A DNA stretch of 52,289 nucleotides from a virus (IMGVR_UViG_3300028840_003294:1-52289); one strand, 5' to 3'. Shown: positions 2,018-50,965, counted from the stretch's first letter. The notes: generated by a model not told the origin, from the sequence alone. Numbers and translations are program-made.

Positions 2018-2050
2018 AAGAGCCCCCCGCTACGGCGGGGGGTTTCTTTG
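2018..2050 (+). terminator. Intrinsic terminator
   Basis: agccccccgc-TACG-gcggggggtt (C-UACG-G tetraloop) followed by T-rich tail. Confidence 0.8.
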
Positions 2051-2198: not shown

Positions 2199-2226
2199 TT
2201 GACAAATTTCCACATAGGTTTACCAT
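2199..2226 (+). promoter_or_regulatory. Sigma70-type promoter
   Basis: TTGACA-16 nt-TACCAT in an AT-rich intergenic segment upstream of the HTH gene. Confidence 0.7.
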
Positions 2227-4571: not shown

Positions 4572-5864
4572 ATGAAAAAGTTGTTGATCGTTGTTTACCT
4601 CATGCTCGTTGCGCTGCCCGTAGCGGCGAACGTCCCACCACCAACCGAATACACCAGCGGCGCCGACTGCGTCCGTCGCCTGATTGCCGGCCAGAACATC
4701 GACGTTGGGCGCGTCGAGCTCGAGTGGCTCGAGAATGACCTACTCGTTTCCTACATCATCGAAGACCCCGACTGGCGAATCAAAGAGGTGCATTTTGGAT
4801 GGTGGCACGAGCAGGGGAATCTTCCCGCTCACGCCGTTCCCGGGGATCTTCAATATGGTCGGGAGGATCTCGACACTACATTGCACTCATTCACCATTTC
4901 AAAGGACAACCTTTGCACGTTCTCGAAGGACGCGCCGGCGAAGTGCGAGGACCGCTGCCCTTGTTGGTTTGCGGCTCACGCTGTTGTAGAGCGGCCGTGC
5001 CCTGAAGAAAAGACGATCTATAAGCCCGGGCGATATGCCACGTCCGCAAAGATCAAGGTCACGCGAGAGGGTCGAAGCTCATTCTTTAACGTTCAAATCC
5101 AAGGGAGCGGGATCAATGCAGCAGTCAACAACGGATGGTGCCTCGACAAAAGACTCACACTCCCCGAGGGAATCTGGCTCGACGCCGAAGTCATCTACGA
5201 CTGGCAGGAGCTCGATGGAATTGTTGATTTTCCACAAAATATGGCCCTCATCGAATGGATTGCAAGGCAAAATTACGTTGGTCGAAAGGTCTTCTGTGGG
5301 CAAATCGTCCAGCGCATACACGTACAAAATGCAATCTGGAATCTGGCTCACGGTAAGCAAATTGGCTGTGTGGCTTCTGCGATTGTCAGCGAGGCACGGC
5401 GCCACGCAAATTCAAAAAACATTCAGCGATCCTGTTGGGAAATGGCGGCAGACTTTGTCCTAACCCCAAGGCTTTGCTCGATGGTTTCTCCCCCGGATGG
5501 TTTCGCTTGTGCGATGTATCAACCGATCTACTCCTACAAATATGTGAGGGAAACATGCCCAACAGATACACCTACCCCGTCAGAAACCCCAACCAGGACG
5601 GCGACTCCCACGCGCACCATTACGCCTACGTTTTCGGCTACCTCCACGGCAACGAGTACGCCCACCGGCACCCCGCCGCCCACTTTGACGCCCTCTTTTA
5701 CACCTACTGCAACGCCTACCGAAACGGCGCCGCCGACTTCTACGCCGACCGCGACTTCAACGCCAAGCCCCTGCCCGCCGCAGCGCGAAACCGCATGGGC
5801 TTTTGGCTCAGTCGAATTCGGTATCGGTTGGGGTTGGTTTTTCGAGTGCTGCGAGGGTGAGTGA
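4572..5864 (+). CDS. Secreted Cys-rich protein with putative thioester (TED/TQXA-like) domain and Thr/Pro linker
   Basis: Sec signal MKKLLIVVYLMLVALPVAA; GWCLD and VQNAIW motifs; TPT repeats; AGGAG RBS. Confidence 0.65.
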   Translation: MKKLLIVVYLMLVALPVAANVPPPTEYTSGADCVRRLIAGQNIDVGRVELEWLENDLLVSYIIEDPDWRIKEVHFGWWHEQGNLPAHAVPGDLQYGREDLDTTLHSFTISKDNLCTFSKDAPAKCEDRCPCWFAAHAVVERPCPEEKTIYKPGRYATSAKIKVTREGRSSFFNVQIQGSGINAAVNNGWCLDKRLTLPEGIWLDAEVIYDWQELDGIVDFPQNMALIEWIARQNYVGRKVFCGQIVQRIHVQNAIWNLAHGKQIGCVASAIVSEARRHANSKNIQRSCWEMAADFVLTPRLCSMVSPPDGFACAMYQPIYSYKYVRETCPTDTPTPSETPTRTATPTRTITPTFSATSTATSTPTGTPPPTLTPSFTPTATPTETAPPTSTPTATSTPSPCPPQRETAWAFGSVEFGIGWGWFFECCEGE

Positions 5865-6130: not shown

Positions 6131-6632
6131 GCATCTCAAAAGATGGCCCCGGGTTCTTGTCACCGGGCCCCAACGATCCGGCACGCGCATCGGCACAACG
6201 ATGATCGCTCACGACCTGAACTATTGGCCCGTGTATGAGGAACAGGTCGGCACGGATTCACTCAATCGCCTGTGGAAGCACCTTCAGACGACGAGGAACA
6301 CAGTCACTCAATGCCCCGCGCTCTCGAGCCACGTTCATCTGCTCGCCCTTGACGATCCAGAGCTCGCCGTCGTTCTCATGCGGAGATCAATCAAAGAGAT
6401 CCGTGCGTCTGAACAGCGGATACGTTGGGCGTGGGAAAAGCCCGAGCTCATCCGAGAGGGCATCCTCGTCAACAGCTCATCGGCTGAAGCGAAATACAAG
6501 CGATGGGACGAGCTCCAAGCCGACGTAATTGGGGAGCGGGGTTTCGTGGTCGAATACTCGAGCCTCCACACTCATCCCCTGTGGAAGCCGGCGCCGGCAA
6601 GAGTAAACTTCGAACCGAGGCAAACACGATGA
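6120..6632 (+). CDS. Sulfotransferase-like P-loop protein
   Basis: VLVTGPQRSGT (5'-PSB-like loop), VVLMRR...IRAS, FVVEYSSL. Confidence 0.65.
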   Translation: MMFEHLKRWPRVLVTGPQRSGTRIGTTMIAHDLNYWPVYEEQVGTDSLNRLWKHLQTTRNTVTQCPALSSHVHLLALDDPELAVVLMRRSIKEIRASEQRIRWAWEKPELIREGILVNSSSAEAKYKRWDELQADVIGERGFVVEYSSLHTHPLWKPAPARVNFEPRQTR

Positions 6633-7231
6633 GCGGGCGACTACCAGACGAGGGCACAACGCGGCGAATTATCTCCGACTTTTTCATCAAGCACCGCTCC
6701 CTCATCATGCCGCACGTTCTCGAGGTCGGATCGGCGCGGCCGGCCGACGCTTGGTGGGCGGATCTTCGGTCGCAACTCGGCGGCATCTCGAAAAAGGAAT
6801 GGACCGGCGTTGACATGAAGGCGTCCGACGGTACGGATGTCGTCCGCAACTTGGCTCGGCTCGACTTCACACTACACCCATTGCCGCAAGACAGCTTTGG
6901 GTCGTGCGTTTGCGCCGAAACCCTCGAGCATGTGGACTACCCGGCGATCTTCTTGATGAACGTCTTCAACCTGCTTCGCCCCGGTGCATGGATCGTCATT
7001 ACGACCCCATTTGCCTTTCCCGTTCACGAATCGACGGGGAAGGACTACTGGCGATTCACGCCGAGCGGCCTGCACCTCCTTCTTACTGATGCGGGATTCG
7101 AACAAGCACACACTTACGAGCTCGAGCCATCGACGTTCTACTGGCACGACCACGAGCATAAACTTTCTGATTACCACGGCCCCCGTGACCTACCATTTTG
7201 GATCGGGGCGATTGCGAGGAAGCCTGAATGA
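6629..7231 (+). CDS. Class I SAM-dependent methyltransferase (Methyltransf_11-like)
   Basis: VLEVGS, GVDM, ETLEHV, LRPGAWIVITTPF, DYWRFT; ATGA coupling. Confidence 0.85.
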   Translation: MSGRLPDEGTTRRIISDFFIKHRSLIMPHVLEVGSARPADAWWADLRSQLGGISKKEWTGVDMKASDGTDVVRNLARLDFTLHPLPQDSFGSCVCAETLEHVDYPAIFLMNVFNLLRPGAWIVITTPFAFPVHESTGKDYWRFTPSGLHLLLTDAGFEQAHTYELEPSTFYWHDHEHKLSDYHGPRDLPFWIGAIARKPE

Positions 7232-8990: not shown

Positions 8991-9286
8991 TGCGATGTTC
9001 AAAATGCGGAGAAGAGACGCCCGCGAATCTTTTCACCCACAGCGGAACAATTTGCGACGACTGTTGGGCCGTGCATGACATGGACAGATTCAGGGAGGTT
9101 CGACCCAAGACGGACTCGGTGCCAGTGGCGAAGTGTGCGAAATTGACGACCGGCATCGGAGTCCTCTGCCCCCATTGTGACCACAAGGTAATGCGAAAAA
9201 ACGGATACTTCCACAAGCAAACGCAGATTGAGCGTTGCCCGAAGTGCATGAACCATTACAAAGTAAAAAAGGGGGAGGCGATATGA
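8990..9286 (+). CDS. Double zinc-finger protein
   Basis: CSKC/CDDC and CPHC/CPKC. Confidence 0.7.
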   Translation: MRCSKCGEETPANLFTHSGTICDDCWAVHDMDRFREVRPKTDSVPVAKCAKLTTGIGVLCPHCDHKVMRKNGYFHKQTQIERCPKCMNHYKVKKGEAI

Positions 9287-9957
9287 CAGAGCGCAAGGAG
9301 CAGGCAATCGCGCTGAGAAAAAACTTGTCCGAAGTGTCAAACCTCGTAGCTGATCTCGAAATTCAAAACGAGCACGACTTGAAAGAGGCGGCAAACATCG
9401 GCAAGGCAATCAAGGCGTATCAAAAGTCCGTCTCCGAATTTTGGGGGCCCTTGGTAGAAAATGCACACAGCACATGGAAGTCCTTGACGGCCAAGCGAAA
9501 CGAGTTTCTCAACCCCGCAAAAGACCTTGAGGCCAGTGTCAAGAAAAAGATTGCGGAGTTCGATCGGAAGATGAGGCTTCAGGCCGAGGAGGAGCGCCGC
9601 AAGGCTCTCGAACAGGAAACGAAAGCGGCCGAGGCCCGCCGGCTTGCGGATCTCGCAGAGCTCGAGGAATCCGGCCTTGTCGATGAGGCTGCGAGTCTTG
9701 CGGAACAGCCCCTCGATGTCGCGCCGATTCAAAAAATCGAAGCGCCGAAGGCCGAGGGCGTTCACACGAGAGAGAATTGGACCGCCGAGGTCATCGACTT
9801 TCAAAAGCTCATCGAATTTTGTGCCGAGAATCCGAGGTGGAATTACCTTCTTGCTCCCAAGGGCCCGGAGCTCAACAAGCTCGCCAAAGCACAGAAGAAG
9901 GCTTTCGATATTCCCGGCGTAGAAGCAAAGTGCGAGCTGACTACGGTAATCCGATGA
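9283..9957 (+). CDS. Coiled-coil phage protein (Gam/gp157-like architecture)
   Basis: Long coiled coil then TRENW...V.D...L...LNKLAK...IPGV; ATGA coupling. Confidence 0.55.
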   Translation: MTERKEQAIALRKNLSEVSNLVADLEIQNEHDLKEAANIGKAIKAYQKSVSEFWGPLVENAHSTWKSLTAKRNEFLNPAKDLEASVKKKIAEFDRKMRLQAEEERRKALEQETKAAEARRLADLAELEESGLVDEAASLAEQPLDVAPIQKIEAPKAEGVHTRENWTAEVIDFQKLIEFCAENPRWNYLLAPKGPELNKLAKAQKKAFDIPGVEAKCELTTVIR

Positions 9958-10445
9958 GGGAAAAGATTACTTTTTTCGTCCCCGGCCGGCCAAGGCCACA
10001 GGGCAGCATGAAGTTTATAAACAAAGGGAAGCGCTCAATCCCCATTCAAAACCAGAAGCTCGAACACTGGCGTTCTGCGATAACAATGTACGCTCAAGAG
10101 GCAATGGGGGGCCTAGCTATCGTGGGCGGCGTTGGCCTTTCTCTCTCGTTTGTTTTCAAGCGCCCGAAAAGCCACTACCGCACCGGGAAGTACGCTCACC
10201 TTTTGAAAGACAGCTCGCCTGATCGAATGCTCAAGGCCCCCGACGTTGACAAGCTCATCCGGGCCGTGCTGGACTCATTGACAGGCATCGTGTTCACCGA
10301 CGACTGCGAAGTGGATCGAGTCGGAGTCGTCAAAAAATGGGGGCCCCGAGAGGGGGTCGAAATAACAGTGAGAGGAGTCTGCTATGCCGTGCAAGGGCGG
10401 GAAGAAGAAGAAGGGCAAGAAGAAAAAGGGCGGGAAGAAGGGTAG
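9954..10445 (+). CDS. rusA: RusA-family Holliday junction resolvase
   Basis: FFVPGRPRPQGS; PDVDKLIRAVLDSLTGIVFTDD. Confidence 0.9.
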   Translation: MREKITFFVPGRPRPQGSMKFINKGKRSIPIQNQKLEHWRSAITMYAQEAMGGLAIVGGVGLSLSFVFKRPKSHYRTGKYAHLLKDSSPDRMLKAPDVDKLIRAVLDSLTGIVFTDDCEVDRVGVVKKWGPREGVEITVRGVCYAVQGREEEEGQEEKGREEG

Positions 10446-11288: not shown

Positions 11289-14200
11289 TTACTCTTTTTT
11301 TAGCCGCCGCTTCAAGGTTTGCAGCTCGATCGTCCGGTAACGACGGTTGAATTTCTTGAATTCATTCTGCATCCTCGAGTCCTTGACAGTCACCCCGGCT
11401 TTCCGAAGCTCGCGGACCCTCTTCTCTGTTGCCTTCACAATTTCCTCAATCGCCAAAACATTTTTGTGCCGCTTGTAGAAGTCAGCCGCGGCCTTCGGAT
11501 CGGTTTTCGTGAGCTCGTCGTAGGTCTCTTTCTTGATCCAGTAATCGCCCATGTTGGCGCGGTACATATTGGGAGCGAAAAACTGCGACTCTTCGGCAAA
11601 GAAAGATTTAAGGACAGGAACATCCCGGGCCGAAAGCGTTTCCCCCGCAGCGCCCTTTGAAAGCAGACTCAGCCCGCGAATCACAGTATCGCCAAGACCT
11701 CCAAGCGCGGCGCCGATCGCATAGTCGATGTCTTCCGGGGAAATGTCGATCCCAAGGTGTTTATACATGAACCGCGTCATCTCTTTCGAAGGCTTTGAGA
11801 CGCTTGAAAAATAACGGTTGTAGTTTGGAGTCGGCACGCCGTACTGTTCAGATCGTGCGAACTTTGAAGGCTCTGGTCGAATCGGTCCTCCCCAAAAATT
11901 GCGGTTCGCGGAGATGTCATAGACGGGGTCAAGCCACGCCGGCATTCCCATTTGGACGAGGCCAACGAGCGTCGTCGGGTCATTGTCGCCAATCGGGTTG
12001 AAGGCTGAGAGGCCGGCTGAGAGGATATGCGCTGTGCCCTCCCAGGCTGCGTCTTTTGTTTCGCTTGGCCGATCCAGTGCGCGATTGACGGCGTCGGCGG
12101 CAAACACTCCAGCTGCGGGGAACAGATTAAATCCCCAAGGCAGCGGAATCTTAAACCGTTTCCCCTCTCCCCCGGGGACCATGAAAATGAGGTTCCGCTT
12201 TTTCTCCCATGCGGGGATTTTGTCCCAATAGGGGATTTTGTCTTTCTCGTCCTCGCCGCCAACCCAACGCATCATCGAAGCGTGCATGAATCCGTAGCCC
12301 ATCGCTCCGAGCATCATCTTTTGAACCTGTCGGTTCTTGGCTACCGAGTCAATGACCATTTTTGAGCCCTGCAAGGAGGCATTGGCGAACACATACCACG
12401 GGCTTAGATATTGCGCGACTGTGCCCTGTTGCGTGAAATCGACAGTGATGTCTCGCGCCAGCTTGCCGGCCCTGTCTTTAGAAAGGCCAATTTCGAGCCC
12501 GCGCTCAAAAACGGAGAAGCGCAACATTCCTTCGACTGCGGCGTTGTAATCTTCAATCCAATTGATTACAGATTTGACGGTGCTGAAAACCTTATTCTGC
12601 TCACCCTTGGTTTGCTCGATTTGAGCCTGAATCTTCCGCATCTGATCCGCTAAATCGGGAATCATCCAGAACGCGGTTTCCCCGCCGGCGAGCTTGAACT
12701 GCTCGATTCTCTGGCGCTTCGTGGCGTCCATTTGGTCGAGCGTCCCTTTCGACTGGCGACGAGCGTATTCTCCGAGAAGCGCCGCTGCCTCTGGAACGCG
12801 CTTCATTGTCTTCAAGCCAAAGCCCTCAAACTTCTTTTCGCCGCCGAGCTTGATCCCGGCGGTGAGAGCATCGCGGACAGCGTTCGGAATCACAAATGCG
12901 GGGTTTCTCGAGGTTGCCATCTTCGAGATGTAGCGGTTGATATTTACGCCAGCCTTCAAGATCGGGTTCAAGTCTTTTGACGAGCCAACGTTATTCAACG
13001 CAGAGACGAATTCAGCCATCCCGGGGCTGACGTGGCGAATGTAGTGCAGCTCGCCGTCGATCCAAACGTTGTAAACGTTGTCCTTGACCACCGAGAGCCC
13101 GTCGATTTTGGTTTTTACGGTCTGCGTCTTTTCATCCCACACGAGCCGCGAATCCGGGCGGTCAATCTCAAAGAGCTTCTCGCCGTTTACGTCCTTGACG
13201 TTCTTCATCTTCTGGACGAAATTCCAGACCGTCTTTGCAACGCGATTCTTTTCGGCCCGCACGGCCGTCTCCATCGCGTCCGTCATCAGCTCTACAGTGG
13301 CCGAGTGTGTTGGGAAAGACCGCCGGCCGAGGGCACGATGAGCGGCAGGGCGCCGACCCGGGTTATACCCGCGGCCGGTGTTCGGGAGATGGATCTTGTC
13401 GGCTATGCCAAGGCCACGAGCAGCTCGAGCCAGGGCCCGGTGCCACATCTTACCGCCGTACATCTCAATCTCGGGGATCGGGGGGCGCCTGCCGTTGGCG
13501 ATGATGTCCAAGATGTCCGGGTCTTTGCCCCGCATCGGAGCGTAATGCTTGTAGTCCCGCCATTTTTTGAGCTCGTCTTTCGAGAGCAAGCCGGCACGGA
13601 ATAGCGTTTCTTCTTTCCAGCGGACGATGTCCGAAAACCGGCGCGAAAGCCGACCGAGCTTGCCTCTATAGACCGTATCTGGTCCGAGCTCCCCATCCCA
13701 TTCCACAAGCCCAAGCTCGCGCATCTCCTCGAGAGCGGCCTTTGCGTGCTCGTCTGTGATTCCAGAGTGAGGCGCCTCTCCAGCCTCGTCCATTCGCCTG
13801 ATTTCAGCGATTTTCTCTTTTTCGCGAGCCACGGATTCGCGCTCGAGGGTTCTCATTTCGACGCGCTTCGGCTTGGCTGAGAACCCGCGCTCGTTGAAGA
13901 ACCGAACCTCTGCAATTCCCGACTCGCGGTTGACCGCTACCACCTCGCCCTTGGCGTTGTTCTCGAGCGACCGGACCTTAGTGCCAATGGACAGGTGCTT
14001 CGTTTCCAGCTTCGCAATTTTGGCCTCTGCCTGTTTAATTGGAAGCGTCACATTCGCCATGCGAATTTTCGGGTTTCGCTCAAGCGCATGAGCGGCCATG
14101 CGGAACAAATCGAAGTCCTCGAGATGAATCCCCGACTTTGCTATGTCGGTAATCAACGGTTTGAAGAGCTTCTCTTCGACCCAATCAACAAGGGCGCCCG

Positions 14201-17200
14201 CACGCGCCTGGAAATTCTGCGCCTTGAGGTAGGCGTCGAAAATTTCGTCGAGCTCTTGACCAACCTCCGTGAGTTTTTCCTGAATTGTGCGAATCGGAGC
14301 TATGCGATCGAAGAGTGTTTTCTCCGCACGGTTTCGGTAATACTCCGTGAGCGTGTGGTCTTCAATCTGCACCCCGGGGTGCTGATCCCCTGAAAGCTCG
14401 TGAGCTCCAGACAACGAGTAAACAGTCTGCGCGTCACCGCGGTCGATGAGCTTTTCTGTGCCGGCGCCCTCGATCGCATTCCGCCACGCTTCGGGGAACT
14501 CTTCAGGAGCGAGCTTCCGATAATCGAACGCTTCTTCTGCGGCCCGCCTCGCACTAAGAATATCGTTCCGAATCGTCCTTAAAATCTTTTGCCCCGTTGG
14601 GTCGGTGATAATCGCCGCCTCTCCCTTTTGAGTCTCAAAAATCTCGCCGCTTGCGATTTGCTCCATGATGCCGGCGGCGCCTTCGATGTCGGCAATTTTT
14701 AGACCCGCAACGTTTTCGAGAAGAGACTGCGCGAACCGCTGGAGGAATTTGAAAATTTGGGTCGCTCTCGGCTCGGCCTCTGCTCGCGTCTCGGCCCACG
14801 CCTGATACGCTTGGGCCGCGCCCTCTTCGGTCTCGTACACCTTCAGCAAGGTCATGCGTTGATCGTTCGTGAGAACGTTATGAAACGCGAAGTGAAAGGA
14901 TTCGTGAAACACCTCTTGGGAAATGCGCTTTGGATTGTAGAGAGAAATCAAATGAGCCCCGCTCATGTCTCCCTGCTGCCCAATTCGATACCGCCCCTGC
15001 ACCTTGACGGTGCCGGCGTCCAGTGCGGCCACCAAATCTTCGGGTTTTATGTTTCGATTCTCCGCTGCCGTTTTGATGAACTCGTCGTCGATCGTCGGGC
15101 CGGGACCGCCAACGGCAACATGCAGAACTGGTTGGCCCTCCCTCGTCAAGCGGAACAGGCCCCCCTGTGTGTGCCGCACATTCCAGCCGCGGAACGCCTT
15201 TTGAATTTTTGGAACGAGCTTCGCCGCTCGAGCTCGAACGCCCTTGTCTTCTTTGTCCTGCTCTGCTTTTCTTTTTCGTGCCTCGCCCTCTTTTTTCGTG
15301 GCGATTTGAATGCGCCGAAGCCTGAGAATCTCTTCGCTGATTTTTTTCTTTTCTGCCGGGTTGGCGTTGTTGAGCTGCGCCGTTAGGTCTTTGATCCGGC
15401 TTTGAATCGTAACCCCGCTCTCGACGTCCTCGGCCCGTGCCGGGGCCTCTGTCGTAGCGGCCGGCTCGAATTCGGTTCGCCTTGCAATCTCGTCCTCGAG
15501 AACGATTGCGAGATCGTGGATCTCGGGATCGAGGCTTTGCACGAGCTCCTCGTCTTTTCTTGTGAGTATTTCGATCGCTGATTCGCCGGCCTCGATGCGC
15601 TTGATGAATTCCGCGACCGCTTTCGGGCTGTTGTCCTGCTCGCGGGCAACGCGGTACATCTGGTCAACGACGTCGTCCGCAGTTCGACGCCTGCCGAACA
15701 TTCTGCGCTCAACGTCTTCGATGGTTTCCTCTGGCGCTTCTTCCCTTGTAAAGCGTTCGAGGATGTTACGCTCCGAGACCGCAGCCTCGAGCTCGAGCGC
15801 CAGGTCTCGCGCCTCGCCGCCGAGCTGTTCTTCAATTTGAACGTCCGACTCGTAAATCTGGTTGACCGTTTGGCCTTCCTCGAGGCCCCTCACGAGTTTC
15901 TGCACGATAGCGGGTTCAATGTTGTTCTTGCGCTGGAACTCGAAAATGTCGTTTTTGACTTTGTCGATTTCGCGCCGGCGCCCTGGCTCTTCCCGCCGCT
16001 CATCTGGCATCTCGATAAATTGGTCCGCGGCTTCTTGTTGCGCGAGGTATTCTTCCGGCGAGATGTCCGGTTTTTGCAAGGCGGCAATCAGGTCGCCCAC
16101 CGTAGCACTCGGCGGCAAATATCCTTCTTCCTTAACAACCTCAAGCATTTGATCCGGCTTCATTCCGTCTTTTCTGCGATAACGAACCGGAACGCCTTCG
16201 CGGCCTTTGTCTCCGTAAATTTCCTCTGAGAGATAGCCTCCTGTGTGTTTGCCGATGCCACCATTTTCGAGAACAATTTGATGAATGGTTCGACCGAGCC
16301 GACGCTGCCCCTTCAGCCTGCGAAGGTGTGGATGTAAGGCTATGACTTCCTCATCAAGCACGACGCCCTTGCGGATCGCTTTTTTGAGCACCGCCTCGTG
16401 GTCTTCTTCGGCCCCGGTTTGCTCGTATTCTTGCGTTGTCATCTCCCACGGATTCTTCGGCTTCTCGATCGGCGGGAGCGGCGTAACTGGTTCCGGGGTA
16501 GCACCCTCTTCGACTTGCTTCCCCTCGTCCAGCCTCATAGCACCGCTCTCAACGCCGTGAGGCTGCGTCGGAGCGGCGGGGCCACCCACTACGGGCCCAC
16601 CTACCGCCGGAGCCGCAGGGCCACGGCCAACGCCCTCAGAGAGATTGCGCTGTCCTCTTTGGCTTGGCGGCGGCGGGAGCTCTGCAAAGGTTTCGGTTTC
16701 TGCTTGCATGCGCTGGCCCGCGACAAGCTCATCGGCTTTGTTGATCGTCGTGGCGAGCTGGCGCATCGCCTCCTGTGGGGAGAGGCCCTGCTCGCCGGCA
16801 AGATCAACAATCGCGGCTTGAGTGTCTTGGTCAAGGTCGCCAGTAACGAACGCCTGGAACAGCTCCGGTCTCACCTTCAGCCAGTCTGGAGCATAGCCGG
16901 CGCGAGCGGCCTCAACACCTTCTGGCGGCGCTAATCTGGCGGACCCGCCCGGGCCATAAAGCGGCGCCACGTCAACGCCGCTCGGAGCAGGCGACCCGGG
17001 CGGGACCACAAACTCTTCCGGCCTTACGTCCGGTTGTGTTTCGGGGATCGGCTCTGTTTGAACAAACTCAGGGACCGCGGGCCCCATGTCAGCCCGAACC
17101 GCATCGGTTCGCGCTGCAACCTCTTCTCCGGTTGGACCCGGCCCTACCTCGGTCTGCGCTTGAATGTTCCCGGCGCCCCCTCCAAAGGGGCCCATCATCG

Positions 17201-18440
17201 TTCCCATTAACCCCGCTTCTTCGATCGACCGTATTACATTGCCCCACGTTTCGGATCGACCTTCCGGCGTCGTGAATGCTTCTATGTTTTCGAGCTCGCC
17301 ACGGTTCATGCGAACAAAATCGGCCGCGGCAGACTCAACGAGCGTTTGTGGAACCTCCGTCAAAACCTCTTCGGCGCCCTGCCGAAGCGCCTCGAGACCC
17401 TTCCGCGCAAGCCATGTTTTGAAAGATTTCGCAGTAATCGGATTTCTCGCAAGCAGCCGGCCGACTGGAGCGAACTCAAGAGCCCCGGTCAAAACACCAA
17501 GCGTTGAGGCGGCGAGCTGTGCGTCTTCTCCTGTGACGCCCTCGGCCTCGAGGTCGGTGAGAATTGAGCCGGTCTGCATCGCCGCGGCGTCCGCAGCCGC
17601 AAGCGCGGGGTTTACCATCGCAGTAGCAACCATCGGCCCCATAACCGGCGCCTGTTCACCGAAAAGGCCGGCGGCATATTTGGCGGGCCCCAATAGTGGT
17701 TCCTCTTCCGACGCTTCTGCGAGCGTTTCAAACCGGCGCTTCGGCGCGATCATTTCATTGCCAACGGCGGCATCGACCGCCACCTCTCTCGCCATTTCGG
17801 CCACCGGGCCAGTCGCTTCGTGCATTTTCTTCGCAACGTCGGTTTGATAAAGCGGGTTGGTGTAGAGTTGCGAGGTCGTGCCAAGGGGGATAACCGGCGC
17901 CTGCTCAAGCGCCATCGTAAACGAGTCGGCAAGGTTTGCAGCCCCGGAAAGTCTACTCGTCAATGCTGTGCTACCGCGCTGGACGCCGCGGACAAGATCC
18001 CCTGCTATTTCCGCGAGCTGCTTTGTGATCGGGTTGTAGCCCTTGGTCGAGTAGATATATTTTTCAACGACATCGCCGTAATCGCTTTCAATGTCTTCGG
18101 TTCCGCTGATCGGCGCTCGCGCCACGCTATACGTTTCTTCCTCGTTGGCCCCGTCTGTGTCAACCACGATTCCGCGAAGGGCCCGACGCTCATCCGGAGT
18201 GAGCATCTGCCAATAGGGGCCCGCCTGAGCGAGCTTATTGAAAGCGGCGTGTCGTTCAATGCGCGGGAGGGAGAGAAAGTCTTGACTTGAGGGCAATTCG
18301 TAGAGCTGCCGACGCTGCCAAACGGCGCCAAGGTTATAACCTAGCTCCTCCCACTCATCACGCAGCCTGAAGATTTCTTCTTCTGGCGTGTCGTCGGGGA
18401 AATGCGCGTATTCTTCTCCAAACCTTACGCGGACGACCAC
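11289..18440 (-). CDS. Giant internal virion/ejection polyvalent protein with HExxH and C-terminal LPD38-like domain
   Basis: 2383 aa; VFHESFH; YWDKIPAWEKKRNLIF...IPLPWGFN...NRNFWGGPI...SPEDIDY; last gene of the structural arm. Confidence 0.75.
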   Translation of the reverse strand: MVVRVRFGEEYAHFPDDTPEEEIFRLRDEWEELGYNLGAVWQRRQLYELPSSQDFLSLPRIERHAAFNKLAQAGPYWQMLTPDERRALRGIVVDTDGANEEETYSVARAPISGTEDIESDYGDVVEKYIYSTKGYNPITKQLAEIAGDLVRGVQRGSTALTSRLSGAANLADSFTMALEQAPVIPLGTTSQLYTNPLYQTDVAKKMHEATGPVAEMAREVAVDAAVGNEMIAPKRRFETLAEASEEEPLLGPAKYAAGLFGEQAPVMGPMVATAMVNPALAAADAAAMQTGSILTDLEAEGVTGEDAQLAASTLGVLTGALEFAPVGRLLARNPITAKSFKTWLARKGLEALRQGAEEVLTEVPQTLVESAAADFVRMNRGELENIEAFTTPEGRSETWGNVIRSIEEAGLMGTMMGPFGGGAGNIQAQTEVGPGPTGEEVAARTDAVRADMGPAVPEFVQTEPIPETQPDVRPEEFVVPPGSPAPSGVDVAPLYGPGGSARLAPPEGVEAARAGYAPDWLKVRPELFQAFVTGDLDQDTQAAIVDLAGEQGLSPQEAMRQLATTINKADELVAGQRMQAETETFAELPPPPSQRGQRNLSEGVGRGPAAPAVGGPVVGGPAAPTQPHGVESGAMRLDEGKQVEEGATPEPVTPLPPIEKPKNPWEMTTQEYEQTGAEEDHEAVLKKAIRKGVVLDEEVIALHPHLRRLKGQRRLGRTIHQIVLENGGIGKHTGGYLSEEIYGDKGREGVPVRYRRKDGMKPDQMLEVVKEEGYLPPSATVGDLIAALQKPDISPEEYLAQQEAADQFIEMPDERREEPGRRREIDKVKNDIFEFQRKNNIEPAIVQKLVRGLEEGQTVNQIYESDVQIEEQLGGEARDLALELEAAVSERNILERFTREEAPEETIEDVERRMFGRRRTADDVVDQMYRVAREQDNSPKAVAEFIKRIEAGESAIEILTRKDEELVQSLDPEIHDLAIVLEDEIARRTEFEPAATTEAPARAEDVESGVTIQSRIKDLTAQLNNANPAEKKKISEEILRLRRIQIATKKEGEARKRKAEQDKEDKGVRARAAKLVPKIQKAFRGWNVRHTQGGLFRLTREGQPVLHVAVGGPGPTIDDEFIKTAAENRNIKPEDLVAALDAGTVKVQGRYRIGQQGDMSGAHLISLYNPKRISQEVFHESFHFAFHNVLTNDQRMTLLKVYETEEGAAQAYQAWAETRAEAEPRATQIFKFLQRFAQSLLENVAGLKIADIEGAAGIMEQIASGEIFETQKGEAAIITDPTGQKILRTIRNDILSARRAAEEAFDYRKLAPEEFPEAWRNAIEGAGTEKLIDRGDAQTVYSLSGAHELSGDQHPGVQIEDHTLTEYYRNRAEKTLFDRIAPIRTIQEKLTEVGQELDEIFDAYLKAQNFQARAGALVDWVEEKLFKPLITDIAKSGIHLEDFDLFRMAAHALERNPKIRMANVTLPIKQAEAKIAKLETKHLSIGTKVRSLENNAKGEVVAVNRESGIAEVRFFNERGFSAKPKRVEMRTLERESVAREKEKIAEIRRMDEAGEAPHSGITDEHAKAALEEMRELGLVEWDGELGPDTVYRGKLGRLSRRFSDIVRWKEETLFRAGLLSKDELKKWRDYKHYAPMRGKDPDILDIIANGRRPPIPEIEMYGGKMWHRALARAARGLGIADKIHLPNTGRGYNPGRRPAAHRALGRRSFPTHSATVELMTDAMETAVRAEKNRVAKTVWNFVQKMKNVKDVNGEKLFEIDRPDSRLVWDEKTQTVKTKIDGLSVVKDNVYNVWIDGELHYIRHVSPGMAEFVSALNNVGSSKDLNPILKAGVNINRYISKMATSRNPAFVIPNAVRDALTAGIKLGGEKKFEGFGLKTMKRVPEAAALLGEYARRQSKGTLDQMDATKRQRIEQFKLAGGETAFWMIPDLADQMRKIQAQIEQTKGEQNKVFSTVKSVINWIEDYNAAVEGMLRFSVFERGLEIGLSKDRAGKLARDITVDFTQQGTVAQYLSPWYVFANASLQGSKMVIDSVAKNRQVQKMMLGAMGYGFMHASMMRWVGGEDEKDKIPYWDKIPAWEKKRNLIFMVPGGEGKRFKIPLPWGFNLFPAAGVFAADAVNRALDRPSETKDAAWEGTAHILSAGLSAFNPIGDNDPTTLVGLVQMGMPAWLDPVYDISANRNFWGGPIRPEPSKFARSEQYGVPTPNYNRYFSSVSKPSKEMTRFMYKHLGIDISPEDIDYAIGAALGGLGDTVIRGLSLLSKGAAGETLSARDVPVLKSFFAEESQFFAPNMYRANMGDYWIKKETYDELTKTDPKAAADFYKRHKNVLAIEEIVKATEKRVRELRKAGVTVKDSRMQNEFKKFNRRYRTIELQTLKRRLKKE

Positions 18441-48236: not shown

Positions 48237-49084
48237 CCCGCCCCCTTCAACCACTCCTCGAACGGGGGAGCCTTCCGCGGCGGAAAATCACCCGCAGCGT
48301 CGGAATACTCCTCCCATCGACTGTGATTCCCGAATTTGTTCCGATCGCTCTCTCGCACCGTGTCGTACAACCAGCCCCCTTCGGCCGTGGGCCGGGAAAC
48401 CCCCACCCGCTGCTTCGCCCCGTCTTCGTTCCGTCGCGTGATCCACGTCCCCACCGCCGCCTTCCACGACTTCATCTTGTTCTTCCCCACCATCCAACCC
48501 TTCGACTCGTAAAAGTCCACGAACGCCTGCGGGTCGATCCGCGTCTCCCCCCTCTCCTCCAAATACCCCCGAACCTCATCCACCGACGGCGGCTTGAATA
48601 CACTCCGTTTCTTCTTCTTCTTAGGAGTATTGTCATCTACATCTACATATACACTTACAGGTACAGGGTCCACTTCCTGTCCGACTTTGTCCACCCCATG
48701 TCCACCACTGTCCACCAATGTCCCCCTCTGTCTCCTCTTGTCCTCTGCCCACTTCATTCTCTGCGACTCTCGAGCCTGCTTCTTCCGGTAATACTCGTAA
48801 TTCACCACCCGCCACCTGTTCGGACCCTCCGGAACCAAACGCCTCCCCCCGTGATCCGGACTCGTGCTGTGCTCATCAGGGCCCGTCAAGACCTCCAACG
48901 CCGAACGGGTCTCCTCGAGCTCCATATTCGCTAACCGCGCCATGCTCTCGACCGTCCCCCGAAAACACCCCTCGCTGTCACACCGCAACAGACACACCGT
49001 AAACAGCTTCCATACTGCCGGCGGGTGCTCGTTGATCGTTGAAAAAAGCATGTCATCCCACAGCATTACGAAATGTGGAGTCAC
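48233..49084 (-). CDS. Replication initiator / replisome organiser
   Basis: N-terminal wHTH-like region ending WRVVNYEYYR; C-terminal FKPPSVDEV...FVDFYESKGWMVGKNKMKSWKAAV; GTGA coupling. Confidence 0.8.
   Translation of the reverse strand: MTPHFVMLWDDMLFSTINEHPPAVWKLFTVCLLRCDSEGCFRGTVESMARLANMELEETRSALEVLTGPDEHSTSPDHGGRRLVPEGPNRWRVVNYEYYRKKQARESQRMKWAEDKRRQRGTLVDSGGHGVDKVGQEVDPVPVSVYVDVDDNTPKKKKKRSVFKPPSVDEVRGYLEERGETRIDPQAFVDFYESKGWMVGKNKMKSWKAAVGTWITRRNEDGAKQRVGVSRPTAEGGWLYDTVRESDRNKFGNHSRWEEYSDAAGDFPPRKAPPFEEWLKGAG
48605..48745. repeat. Putative replication origin: phased TGTCC iterons plus AT-rich tract
   Basis: TGTCC-like units at 48667, 48678, 48688, 48699, 48709, 48719, 48729, 48739. 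Confidence 0.7.
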
Positions 49085-49281
49085 GACGGCTCCTCCATTT
49101 CTGATTCCTGCTCGAGAACCATGAACCGCTCCGCTGTGGCTGAATACGGGCGCGTCGATCGACTCTCCCACAACGCAATCGTCACAGGCGTAGTCTCCAA
49201 CATCTCCGCCAATTGCACTTGCGTCACCAACAATTTCAAACGTAGCGCCTTGACCCGCTGGCCCCACGTCATCTCGTCCAT
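49081..49281 (-). CDS. XRE-family HTH regulator (Cro-like)
   Basis: VKALRLKLLVTQVQLAEMLETTPVTIALWES...P. Confidence 0.85.
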   Translation of the reverse strand: MDEMTWGQRVKALRLKLLVTQVQLAEMLETTPVTIALWESRSTRPYSATAERFMVLEQESEMEEPS

Positions 49282-49547
49282 CAAAAACCCCTGAGATTCT
49301 GGCATTGAGAATAGCCTCCAACAACTTAAAAAGTCGGGCAAACTCTTTATAACCTCGTAAGCCCTAAAAGTCAATGGTTCCGGAAAATTATTTCCCACAA
49401 CTAAACTGCCACCCGATCGCCCAAATTTTTGCGTAAATTTCTGGAGGGGGAATAGTTCCCCCCCCGTGGGGCGCTCGTGGGGGTGGACGGGGCCCGGGTG
49501 TTGGTGCTTCGTCGTGGTGCCCGGGCTCCCGGTCGCGTCGATATCGA

Positions 49548-49575
49548 GGTTGACATAATAGCAGTTATCGGACGC
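49548..49575 (-). other. dif-like XerC/XerD recombination site
   Basis: - strand GCGTCCGATAA-CTGCTA-TTATGTCAACC (11-6-11), compared with E. coli dif GGTGCGCATAA-TGTATA-TTATGTTAAAT. Confidence 0.8.
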
Positions 49576-49832
49576 TAGCCCGCTAACCCGTGAAGACTCA
49601 ACGGCTTAACCCCTTGGGCCCGGGCTCCCAGTCTCAACTAAGGCAGGGTGGCGCCGAAACCGACCGCACCCGGGGCTCGACTCCCGCCCGGATGGTTGCT
49701 CCCGGGGGACTGGGGACCGCTGATCCTGAGATCCGGACCAGCCGAGCTCGCCGCGCTTGCGGTTCGGGAATCCTCTCCCCCTCACAAAGCCCGGGTTCGA
49801 GCGATGGCAGGGCGGGGAACGGATGAGAGATC

Positions 49833-49883
49833 CAATGACGTAGGGCGTCAGCATTTCACGTCACTCAATGACGCCCACCGTCA
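49833..49883. promoter_or_regulatory. Two palindromic operator/UAS boxes CAATGACG-N5-CGTCA
   Basis: TGACG-taggg-CGTCA (49836-49850) and TGACG-cccac-CGTCA (49869-49883), 33 bp apart. Confidence 0.75.
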
Positions 49884-49924
49884 CATTATTTGTAAACCTA
49901 CACCGTAAACAAAGGACTTAGCTG

Positions 49925-49941
49925 TTGGCATGGATTCTGCA
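49925..49941 (+). promoter_or_regulatory. Sigma54 (RpoN) -24/-12 promoter
   Basis: TTGGCATGGATTCTGCA with exact GG-N10-GC spacing; IHF-like AACAAAGGACTTA just upstream. Confidence 0.7.
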
Positions 49942-49992
49942 TATTCAATCAATGCGTTGTCAGAGACGCAAAAAACCAAAGGGGGTTCAATC

Positions 49993-50889
49993 ATGGGTTC
50001 GAAATTCTACAGTGAGAAAGCGGAACAGGCAGCGAACAAGATACTGGAGGCATTTGAGGAGCCCGGGAGGCTTCCCGCGGCATTGAAGGACATCGCCTTG
50101 CCAGCCACGGAGCGCCACGCGGGGAGTTACAGCATCAGGAATCAAATGTTGGTTTGGATAAACGGATACACGGACGCCGCGGGGTTCAAGCAATGGAAGA
50201 AGTACGGACGCGCCGTCCGCAAAGGCGAGCGCGGGTTCCCCATTCTCGCACCCGTGACCGCGACGTTTACCGCGAAGGATACCGACCCAGAGACGGGCAG
50301 AGAGATCGAGCACCCCGTGACCTACATCCGCGGATGGCGCCACGTTACCGTCTTCGGGATCGAGCAGACCGACATCGTGAATGAGGAGCTCTGGCAGAAA
50401 TACAGCGAAGCAGCGGCGAAGAATGCCGAGTTTCTCGAGAATCTCCCATGGGTCGAGGTGGCGCGGTCATGGAATCTCGCCTGCGGCGCCGACGGTCGCT
50501 TGCTCGAATACGGCGCCCGGGGTTGCTACACACACGGAAAAGCGATCGAAATCGGAGTAGAGAATCTCTCGACGTGGGCACACGAGCTCGTTCACGCGGC
50601 AGACGACCGCCTTGGAACGTTGACAAAGAAGTCCGGACAGCAGCCCGACAATGAGTTAGTTGCGGAGCTCGGAGGGGCTGTGCTGTGCCTCTGTGCCGGA
50701 CACGAGACCGAGGCGGACATCGGCGGAGCATGGGAGTACATCAAAGGCTATTCGAAAGACCCCGTCAAGGACGCCGGAAACCTCTTGTCTCGCATCGTAA
50801 CGGCCGTTGCTCTCATCATGGAACAAGCGAAGAACCCCGACGAGACCATTCCGGCCGTTAACCCCGAGCTCAAGACCAAAGCAGCGTAG
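49993..50889 (+). CDS. ardC: ArdC-like anti-restriction protein (ssDNA-binding N-domain plus zincin HExxH)
   Basis: YSIRNQMLV, GFKQWKKYGRAVRKGERG..ILAP, VFGIEQT, WAHELVH, ELVAELGG. Confidence 0.85.
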   Translation: MGSKFYSEKAEQAANKILEAFEEPGRLPAALKDIALPATERHAGSYSIRNQMLVWINGYTDAAGFKQWKKYGRAVRKGERGFPILAPVTATFTAKDTDPETGREIEHPVTYIRGWRHVTVFGIEQTDIVNEELWQKYSEAAAKNAEFLENLPWVEVARSWNLACGADGRLLEYGARGCYTHGKAIEIGVENLSTWAHELVHAADDRLGTLTKKSGQQPDNELVAELGGAVLCLCAGHETEADIGGAWEYIKGYSKDPVKDAGNLLSRIVTAVALIMEQAKNPDETIPAVNPELKTKAA

Positions 50890-50965
50890 CGGGCCCGTAG
50901 CAGCGCCCGCGGGGGCGTTGCCGCGGTCTCACTAACACCAGGGACCGAGAAGAGGAGCAGAGAAA
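50890..50965 (+). promoter_or_regulatory. Intergenic hairpin plus CGGTC-Nx-GACCGAGAA-RBS element (copy 1)
   Basis: gcagcgccc/gggcgttgc stem; cggtc at 50924; gaccgagaa at 50943. Confidence 0.6.

Follow-up and report, generated by a model that had tools for sequence, protein, structure and literature searches.

Positions 49,836-49,941 of a complete IMG/VR virus record (IMGVR_UViG_3300028840_003294) read as an enhancer-dependent sigma-54 promoter in front of an anti-restriction gene, with an activator that the host would supply. We estimate the probability of this reading, which comes from sequence analysis, at roughly three in four. It draws on the motifs themselves, their recurrence as a unit in unrelated phages, their phased spacing, and the lack of an activator gene in the phage. 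Throughout, "the window" means the whole stretch of DNA analysed, 52,289 bp in length and bounded by a 144-bp direct end repeat.

Sigma-54 promoters of the enhancer-dependent class are textbook knowledge. Those of the NtrC/PspF type have dyads, a bending-protein site before the box, and a requirement for an AAA+ activator. The usual view of phage genes is that their transcription relies on sigma-70 promoters or on polymerases of the phage itself. A sigma-54 promoter stays off unless a specific signalling protein of the host expends ATP on it.

Layout of the region before ardC

The genome is divided into two arms, and the promoter region lies within the ~600-bp gap that separates them. The minus-strand arm runs from 49,398 down to 11,289 and encodes an XRE-type regulator, terminase, portal and tail proteins, and a 2,383-residue polyvalent protein. 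The plus-strand arm runs from ardC at 49,993, across the end repeat, to ~11,200. The first gene of this unit, ardC (49,993-50,889, plus strand), encodes an anti-restriction protein with an ArdC N-terminal domain and an HExxH motif (Pfam ArdcN, 1.6e-10; PHROG 7245 anti-restriction, 3.7e-15). Its product has 831 homologues, the nearest 60-73% identical. We place the start at 49,993 rather than at the in-frame ATG at 49,930 because the N-termini of all 19 aligned homologues fall no more than a few residues from MGSKFY. A ribosome-binding site, AGGGGG (49,980-49,985, plus strand), can be read in the sequence 7 nt 5' of this ATG.

Two enhancer dyads open the promoter region. The distal one, TGACGTAGGGCGTCA (49,836-49,850), is centred ~109 bp before the predicted transcription start and belongs to the dyad type of other viral cassettes. 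The proximal one, TGACGCCCACCGTCA (49,869-49,883), is centred ~76 bp before that start and lies 42 nt from the TGGCA of the box, which places it in the 38-43 nt cassette class. Both are exact copies of TGACG-N5-CGTCA, sit 33 bp apart start to start, and are each preceded by CAA (CAATGACG), just as the initial annotation of this DNA had described. They are the only exact dyads in the 52,289 bp, and four were found against 2.5 expected when up to one mismatch was allowed. Midway between these 15-bp dyads is a third element that the initial annotation lacked, a short dyad-like sequence, TTCACGTCAC (49,855-49,864), with a counterpart (GTGACGTCAC or GTGACGTG) in the viral contigs L116, L092, L109, and L090.

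Further downstream, the annotated IHF-like element, AACAAAGGACTTA (49,908-49,920, plus strand), is present with two mismatches to WATCAA-N4-TTR. It starts 18 nt before TGGCA, as in other cassettes, and it is this offset, not its own score, that supports it. The sigma-54 type -24/-12 box, TGGCATGGATTCTGCA (49,926-49,941, plus strand), follows with GG at 49,927-49,928, GC at 49,939-49,940, and ten bases between them. Compared with the consensus TGGCAC-N5-TTGCW, it deviates at just two positions, with T instead of C at -21 and C instead of T at -15, and both variants are common in the cassette family. The GC is 53 nt from the ardC ATG, close to the ~50 nt first proposed. Sigma-54 promoters start transcription 11-13 nt past the GC, and by this geometry the predicted start would fall at 49,951-49,953 (plus strand), counting from the C.

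Matrix scoring was among the checks proposed in the initial annotation. With a position matrix built from a non-curated sigma-54 consensus, the window box was the best in the genome at 14.8 bits, but 65 of 200 shuffled genomes attained that score. The IHF consensus was likewise not curated, and ~16% of random 45-mers from the comparison loci equal the two-mismatch element, which alone is not significant. The pattern TGGCA-N7-TGCW occurs twice in the genome against 0.63 expected, with at least two in 15 of 100 shuffles, while bare GG-N10-GC is uninformative (660 occurrences against 658 expected). Because the box alone is not significant genome-wide, its position, its orientation, and the comparative data carry the case.

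The dyads could instead be operators for a phage repressor, XRE or other, with an ardC promoter that does not depend on sigma-54 and a coincidental -24/-12 match. An XRE-type helix-turn-helix gene (49,081-49,398, minus strand; Pfam HTH_3 8.3e-5, at the cut-off; PHROG repressor families) diverges from the same long intergenic region as the first gene of the minus-strand arm. Tandem dyads on one helix face also fit cooperative repressors such as those of lambdoid operators, and a box that is not significant by itself leaves room for coincidence. The region thus resembles the CI/Cro (XRE-family) operator arrays of temperate phages in its tandem dyads, its divergent control region, and its adjacent XRE-type gene. 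Unlike in those arrays, however, the window dyads are far from the XRE gene, ~440 bp from its start and away from its promoter. Moreover, we found no sigma-70-like promoter on the plus strand before ardC.

The dyads could also act in RNA, as a hairpin, terminator, or processing site for a transcript from a conserved element near 49,550, a role that need not exclude the sigma-54 promoter. RNA from 49,826-49,900 folds to -21.4 kcal/mol (z-score -3.98 against shuffles), a T-rich sequence, CATTATTTGT, follows the hairpin, and a simple scan scores the second dyad as terminator-like. The upstream element, TT[GT]ACATAAT-N5-TTATC, is conserved in the window and in the related contigs L162 and L166. 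However, any dyad pair folds by construction. Elsewhere in the cassette family, the five-base centres of the two dyads do not pair with one another and the T run is absent, so a hairpin plus T run is not a conserved feature. We consider an RNA role very unlikely.

The sequence between the XRE gene and the enhancer (49,460-49,830) is a G+C-rich, gene-free stretch of ~370 bp, with GCCCGGGCTCC repeats 99 bp apart. The conserved element just mentioned lies within it at 49,548-49,572 and is followed by CCCGG..CCAGTCTCAAC, which L162 and L166 also keep. This stretch may encode a small RNA or serve as an origin or packaging site, and 49,300-50,100 had no match in Rfam. In a search for close relatives, 49,300-50,900 had no match at the DNA level among isolated phages, and the single protein ArdC had none among viral contigs.

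Recurrence of the cassette in other viral contigs

The arrangement seen in the window recurs elsewhere. A tandem-dyad scan over 2.9 million viral contigs found the tandem dyad in 37, with a spacing of 32-33 bp in 13. A box scoring at least 13 lay within 250 nt in 7 of these 13, compared with 0 of the 24 others. The whole window architecture, including a central GTGACGTCAC-like element, is present in L090, L116, L092, and L109. A strict pattern, GTGACG-N5-CGTCAC followed 25-55 nt on by TGGCA-N7-TGC, matched 34 viral contigs, and its complemented control matched 1. Relaxing the scan to GTGACR-N5-YGTCAC plus TGGCAY raised the count to 112 viral contigs, with GTGACA-N5-TGTCAC the commonest dyad among the matches listed. 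Judged from their context, ~4 of the 30 non-redundant strict-scan instances resemble chance matches inside genes.

The distance from dyad to box follows the turn of the helix. In the 30 strict-scan instances, it was 29-32 nt (4 instances), 38-43 nt (14), or 47-55 nt (12), with none at 33-37 or 44-46 nt, a periodicity of 10.5-11.5 bp (p < 1e-4 against a uniform spread). Among the 80 of the 112 relaxed-scan contigs that were listed, 49 new non-redundant instances fell into the same three classes ~11 bp apart, with one exception at 34 nt, and the statistic repeated. By the same scan measure, the window distance is 41 nt, within the middle class, which was the most populated in the first set. The tandem upstream sites, IHF site, and -24/-12 box that the initial annotation had recognised as the layout of a sigma-54 enhancer promoter therefore stand as a recurring, helically phased cassette.

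Box positions left free by the search tell the same story. In the first set, C or T occupied -21 in 97%, G occupied -20 in 70%, and A or T occupied -11 in 87%. The second set had G at -20 in 37 of 49. This agreement with the sigma-54 consensus is an independent sign that the cassettes are sigma-54 promoters. Boxes across the family are of the same type as that of the window and are followed by TAT.

IHF-type sites also recur. Of 24 cassettes, 5 contain a perfect IHF consensus in the 45 nt that precede the box (vs. 0.4% of random 45-mers) and a further 4 contain a one-mismatch site (vs. 1.9%), so that 9 of 24 have a site with at most one mismatch against 2.3% expected. In L090, L116, L147, and L159, the perfect site starts 17, 17, 18, and 19 nt upstream of the box, respectively, offsets that bracket that of the window element. 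Most other cassettes also have a Shine-Dalgarno sequence and start codon 33-54 nt past the GC.

The carriers are phages of different kinds, some marked by a DNA polymerase, some by a T7-like terminase with an integrase, and some by CobT; the terminase of the window phage itself has only remote T7-like matches. For L149 and L143, the two carriers checked, the nearest isolated relatives have hosts among the Alpha-, Beta-, and Gammaproteobacteria. Comparison of the window with the cassette loci by tblastx gave no matches. Within 3 kb of the cassette, no protein family was shared by more than 4 of 28 loci, and none was common with the window. Searching cassette DNA by blastn against isolated phages and E. 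coli genomes returned nothing meaningful; the sole match, 21 nt in Variovorax phage VAC_51, proved to be an IHF-like site lacking a box. The cassette has clearly moved between phages.

These comparisons bear directly on the operator reading, which the initial annotation had offered as its alternative in the form of an XRE operator. With no family common to more than 4 of 28 loci, the data argue against any phage-encoded binding protein, the XRE protein included. In contrast to CI/Cro arrays, the dyads are shared by unrelated phages. What accompanies them, at phased distances, is a sigma-54 box and not any repressor family, and this holds in phages that have no protein in common with the window. 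A repressor operator with a coincidental box is therefore very unlikely, and the sigma-54 promoter remains our preferred reading.

Several carriers have features of their own. At 3,400-3,560 of L147, shared dyads lie between two outward-facing sigma-54 boxes, TGGCACGGTAGCTGCA and TGGCACGCTTATTGCA, an arrangement that looks like a bidirectional enhancer. The related cassette phages L092 (~9,230-9,970, minus strand), L116 (12,160-12,780, minus strand), and L109 (6,885-7,025, plus strand) have ~600 nt without a plausible gene after the promoter. These stretches could represent long leaders or non-coding RNAs, and Rfam found only an unrelated tRNA in them. Among the tandem-dyad contigs, the RusA-domain protein of the window (9,777-10,445, plus strand) cross-matches only L104 and L107 (44% over 91 residues), whose dyads have no good sigma-54 box after them.

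Candidate activators and a possible link to type IV pilin genes

As the initial annotation had noted, the phage appears to bring no activator of its own. Neither Pfam Sigma54_activat (PF00158) nor HTH_8 had a match in the complete 52-kb record. PF00158 was also absent from all 21 virus records searched (the window and 20 others), 18 of which carry the cassette, the window included, and 6 of these carriers are at least 90% complete. Without a phage gene for it, the activator would have to come from the host.

Well-known host systems offer a first comparison. In the enteric glnAp2/NtrC and glnHp2 promoters and in pspA/PspF, the -24/-12 box is likewise preceded by two dyads separated by about three helical turns. 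The 17-bp cassette dyad has the 6-N5-6 geometry of the NtrC site, but its half-site is GTGAC(G/A), which differs from that of NtrC. The cassette differs further from glnAp2/NtrC and pspA/PspF in that its enhancer is unusually near the box (30-55 nt) and in that it resides in a phage genome without an activator gene. RtcR and PspF were considered as activators and set aside, as the upstream regions of E. coli rtcB and pspA (E. coli being the only species compared) have no such dyad.

A further lead came from L159, whose copy of the cassette lies before a type IV pilin gene (Pfam Pilin and N_methyl). A scan of the viral contigs for a sigma-54 box followed by a prepilin N-terminus yielded 14 contigs with 12 distinct promoters. 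Pilin identity rests on Pfam for L159, and the other pilins were judged by their N-terminal sequence. TGAC[AG]-N5-[CT]GTCA was present in 5 of the 12 promoters, compared with 34 of 3,600 random 150-mers from the same loci, and the full dyad was absent from the other 7. In the five, the nearest dyad lies 40, 43, 53, 56, or 63 nt before the box, distances that are also seen in phage cassettes. The window cassette thus resembles the PilR/RpoN pilA promoters of Proteobacteria, with the difference that it drives an anti-restriction gene instead of a pilin.

In Pseudomonas and relatives, pilin genes (pilA) are known to need RpoN and the response regulator PilR (PMC6058289; PMC7170775). The P. aeruginosa PilR consensus is quoted as TGT-N11-ACA (PMC8035640). 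Set against that quoted motif, the cassette 17-mer, GTG-N11-CAC, agrees in length and dyad symmetry and differs in its letters. A PilR-like activator is the best candidate because type IV pilin genes driven by sigma-54 are preceded by the same dyad with the same spacing. We put the odds that the activator is a PilR-like host response regulator at roughly even.

The pilin loci also deserve mention in their own right. L159 (7,855-8,310, minus strand) and L183-L195 contain complete type IV major pilin genes behind sigma-54 promoters, and the neighbours of the L159 pilin look phage-like (Rad52-like, DHH). The pilins in these viral contigs are either phage-borne or part of the host flanks of prophages.

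Relatives, host genomes and the proposed course of expression

The initial annotation had also looked to relatives and hosts for confirmation, and neither the relatives nor the sampled genomes provided it. GG-N10-GC is not conserved in the only two informative relatives, L001/L016 and L166, an outcome that the initial annotation had named as one that would refute its reading. The first, whose ArdC is 55% identical, lacks both dyad and box, and TTGACG-N17-TACCTT precedes its ardC. The second, syntenic and with a terminase 52% identical, has a single TGACGTACAACGTCA at the equivalent place, no box, and TTGACA-N17-TACCTT further on. The L162 contig stops just short of the promoter region. The two informative relatives are distant, and promoter replacement at that divergence is plausible. 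Copies of the phage DNA in sediment and seawater metagenomes are identical to the window and hence offer no variation in the boxes. A look for expression turned up no run recorded as RNA that contains this DNA.

On the host side, ArdC relatives come mostly from Planctomycetota assemblies and point to that phylum as a possible host group. Each of five Planctomycetota genomes with ArdC relatives encodes Sigma54_DBD and 11-25 activator genes. The strict cassette, by contrast, was found in 0 of 401 sampled Planctomycetota genomes, so the proposed dyad upstream of host sigma-54 promoters did not emerge from this sample. The tandem dyad occurred in 1 of the 401, where it was an unrelated perfect inverted repeat. 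Similarly, the cassette had no match in the 31 genomes of the class of G416. Across the five genomes, no box accompanied any of the 16 single dyads examined, and the pilin-like genes were not visibly sigma-54-driven, with one weak box-plus-prepilin match. Synteny with bacterial contigs was not found outside ardC. In one of the five, G005, the reversed control of GTGACG-N5-CGTCAC matched 32 times per strand compared with 0-1 in the other four, which points to a repeat family containing CACTGC-N5-GCAGTG.

These results could indicate that the cassette is of a genuine type but inert in this phage, a recent or decaying copy in a phage whose host does not have the activator. In that case, ardC would depend on read-through or on a promoter that escaped recognition. 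The relatives use a sigma-70-type TTGACA-N17-TACCTT at the equivalent place, and the sampled Planctomycetota genomes hold no counterpart. The window copy is also of the more degenerate kind, with ATGACG rather than GTGACG flanks and two mismatches in each of the central and IHF elements. Still, every part is at its modal spacing (33 bp from dyad to dyad, 42 nt to the box, 53 nt from GC to ATG), 14 of the specified consensus positions are intact in the box, and an alternative promoter was not found. Loss of function in this copy is therefore unlikely in our judgement, and we return to an active sigma-54 promoter in what follows.

Which proteins bind, whether transcription depends on sigma-54, where and when it starts, and which activator is used are inferred from the sequence; the course that we propose is as follows. 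Host RNA polymerase with sigma-54 would sit closed on the box at 49,926-49,941. Dimers of a host AAA+ activator would bind the dyads, whose centres lie near -109 and -76, possibly together with the central element, and would form an ATPase ring. A bend at the IHF-type site (49,908-49,920) would carry this ring to the polymerase, and the activator bound at the dyads would then open the closed complex. Transcription from ~49,952 would proceed through ardC and about eight small genes and across the 144-bp end repeat. It would probably end at a strong hairpin with a T run (2,020-2,045, plus strand; 11 pairs, 8 of them G-C). A sigma-70-like promoter, TTGACA-16-TACCAT (2,199-2,226, plus strand; 10 of 12 matches), would take over for the next plus-strand block, which contains the nuclease-like, methyltransferase, and RusA genes. 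Gene content suggests that the ardC unit is "early," and through its promoter the phage would read host physiology.

The form TTGAC(A/G)-N16/17-TACC(T/A)T, sigma-70-like with an unusual second hexamer, occurs at 2,895-2,935 in L001, at ~5,290-5,325 (minus strand) in L166, and at 2,199-2,226 in the window. It may be the usual promoter form of the host.

The polyvalent protein (11,289-18,440, minus strand; 2,383 residues) has an LPD38 domain, and related PHROG families have proteins of 2,800-3,400 residues. Together with ArdC and a methyltransferase (6,503-7,231), it suggests a strong investment in counter-defence. An N4-type virion polymerase with hairpin promoters was considered and rejected, since this large protein is the polyvalent protein (LPD38) and not a polymerase. 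Sigma70_r2 had no match in the window.

Open-access papers and preprints (including PMC7693777) yielded no description of a cassette carried by phages that combines this dyad and spacing rule with an apparent pilin link. If more than 100 viral contigs share a portable enhancer-plus-promoter cassette, a defined set of genes in many phages, in the window an anti-restriction operon, would be tied to one host signal. The consensus dyad and spacing rule could serve the annotation of such promoters in viral metagenomes. The proposal reduces to a short, concrete DNA element and a named candidate regulator, PilR, both of which can be tested.

A broader idea, which we offer tentatively and at somewhat less than even odds, is that many unrelated phages copied the host type IV pilin control region, with its PilR enhancer, bending site, and sigma-54 promoter, and placed it before their first-expressed genes. 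In the window phage, PilS-PilR would then switch on the anti-restriction operon. PilS-PilR reports the state of the pilus, and the pilus is the receptor for many phages. If this idea is true, a host two-component pathway would be a general, portable trigger of phage gene expression.
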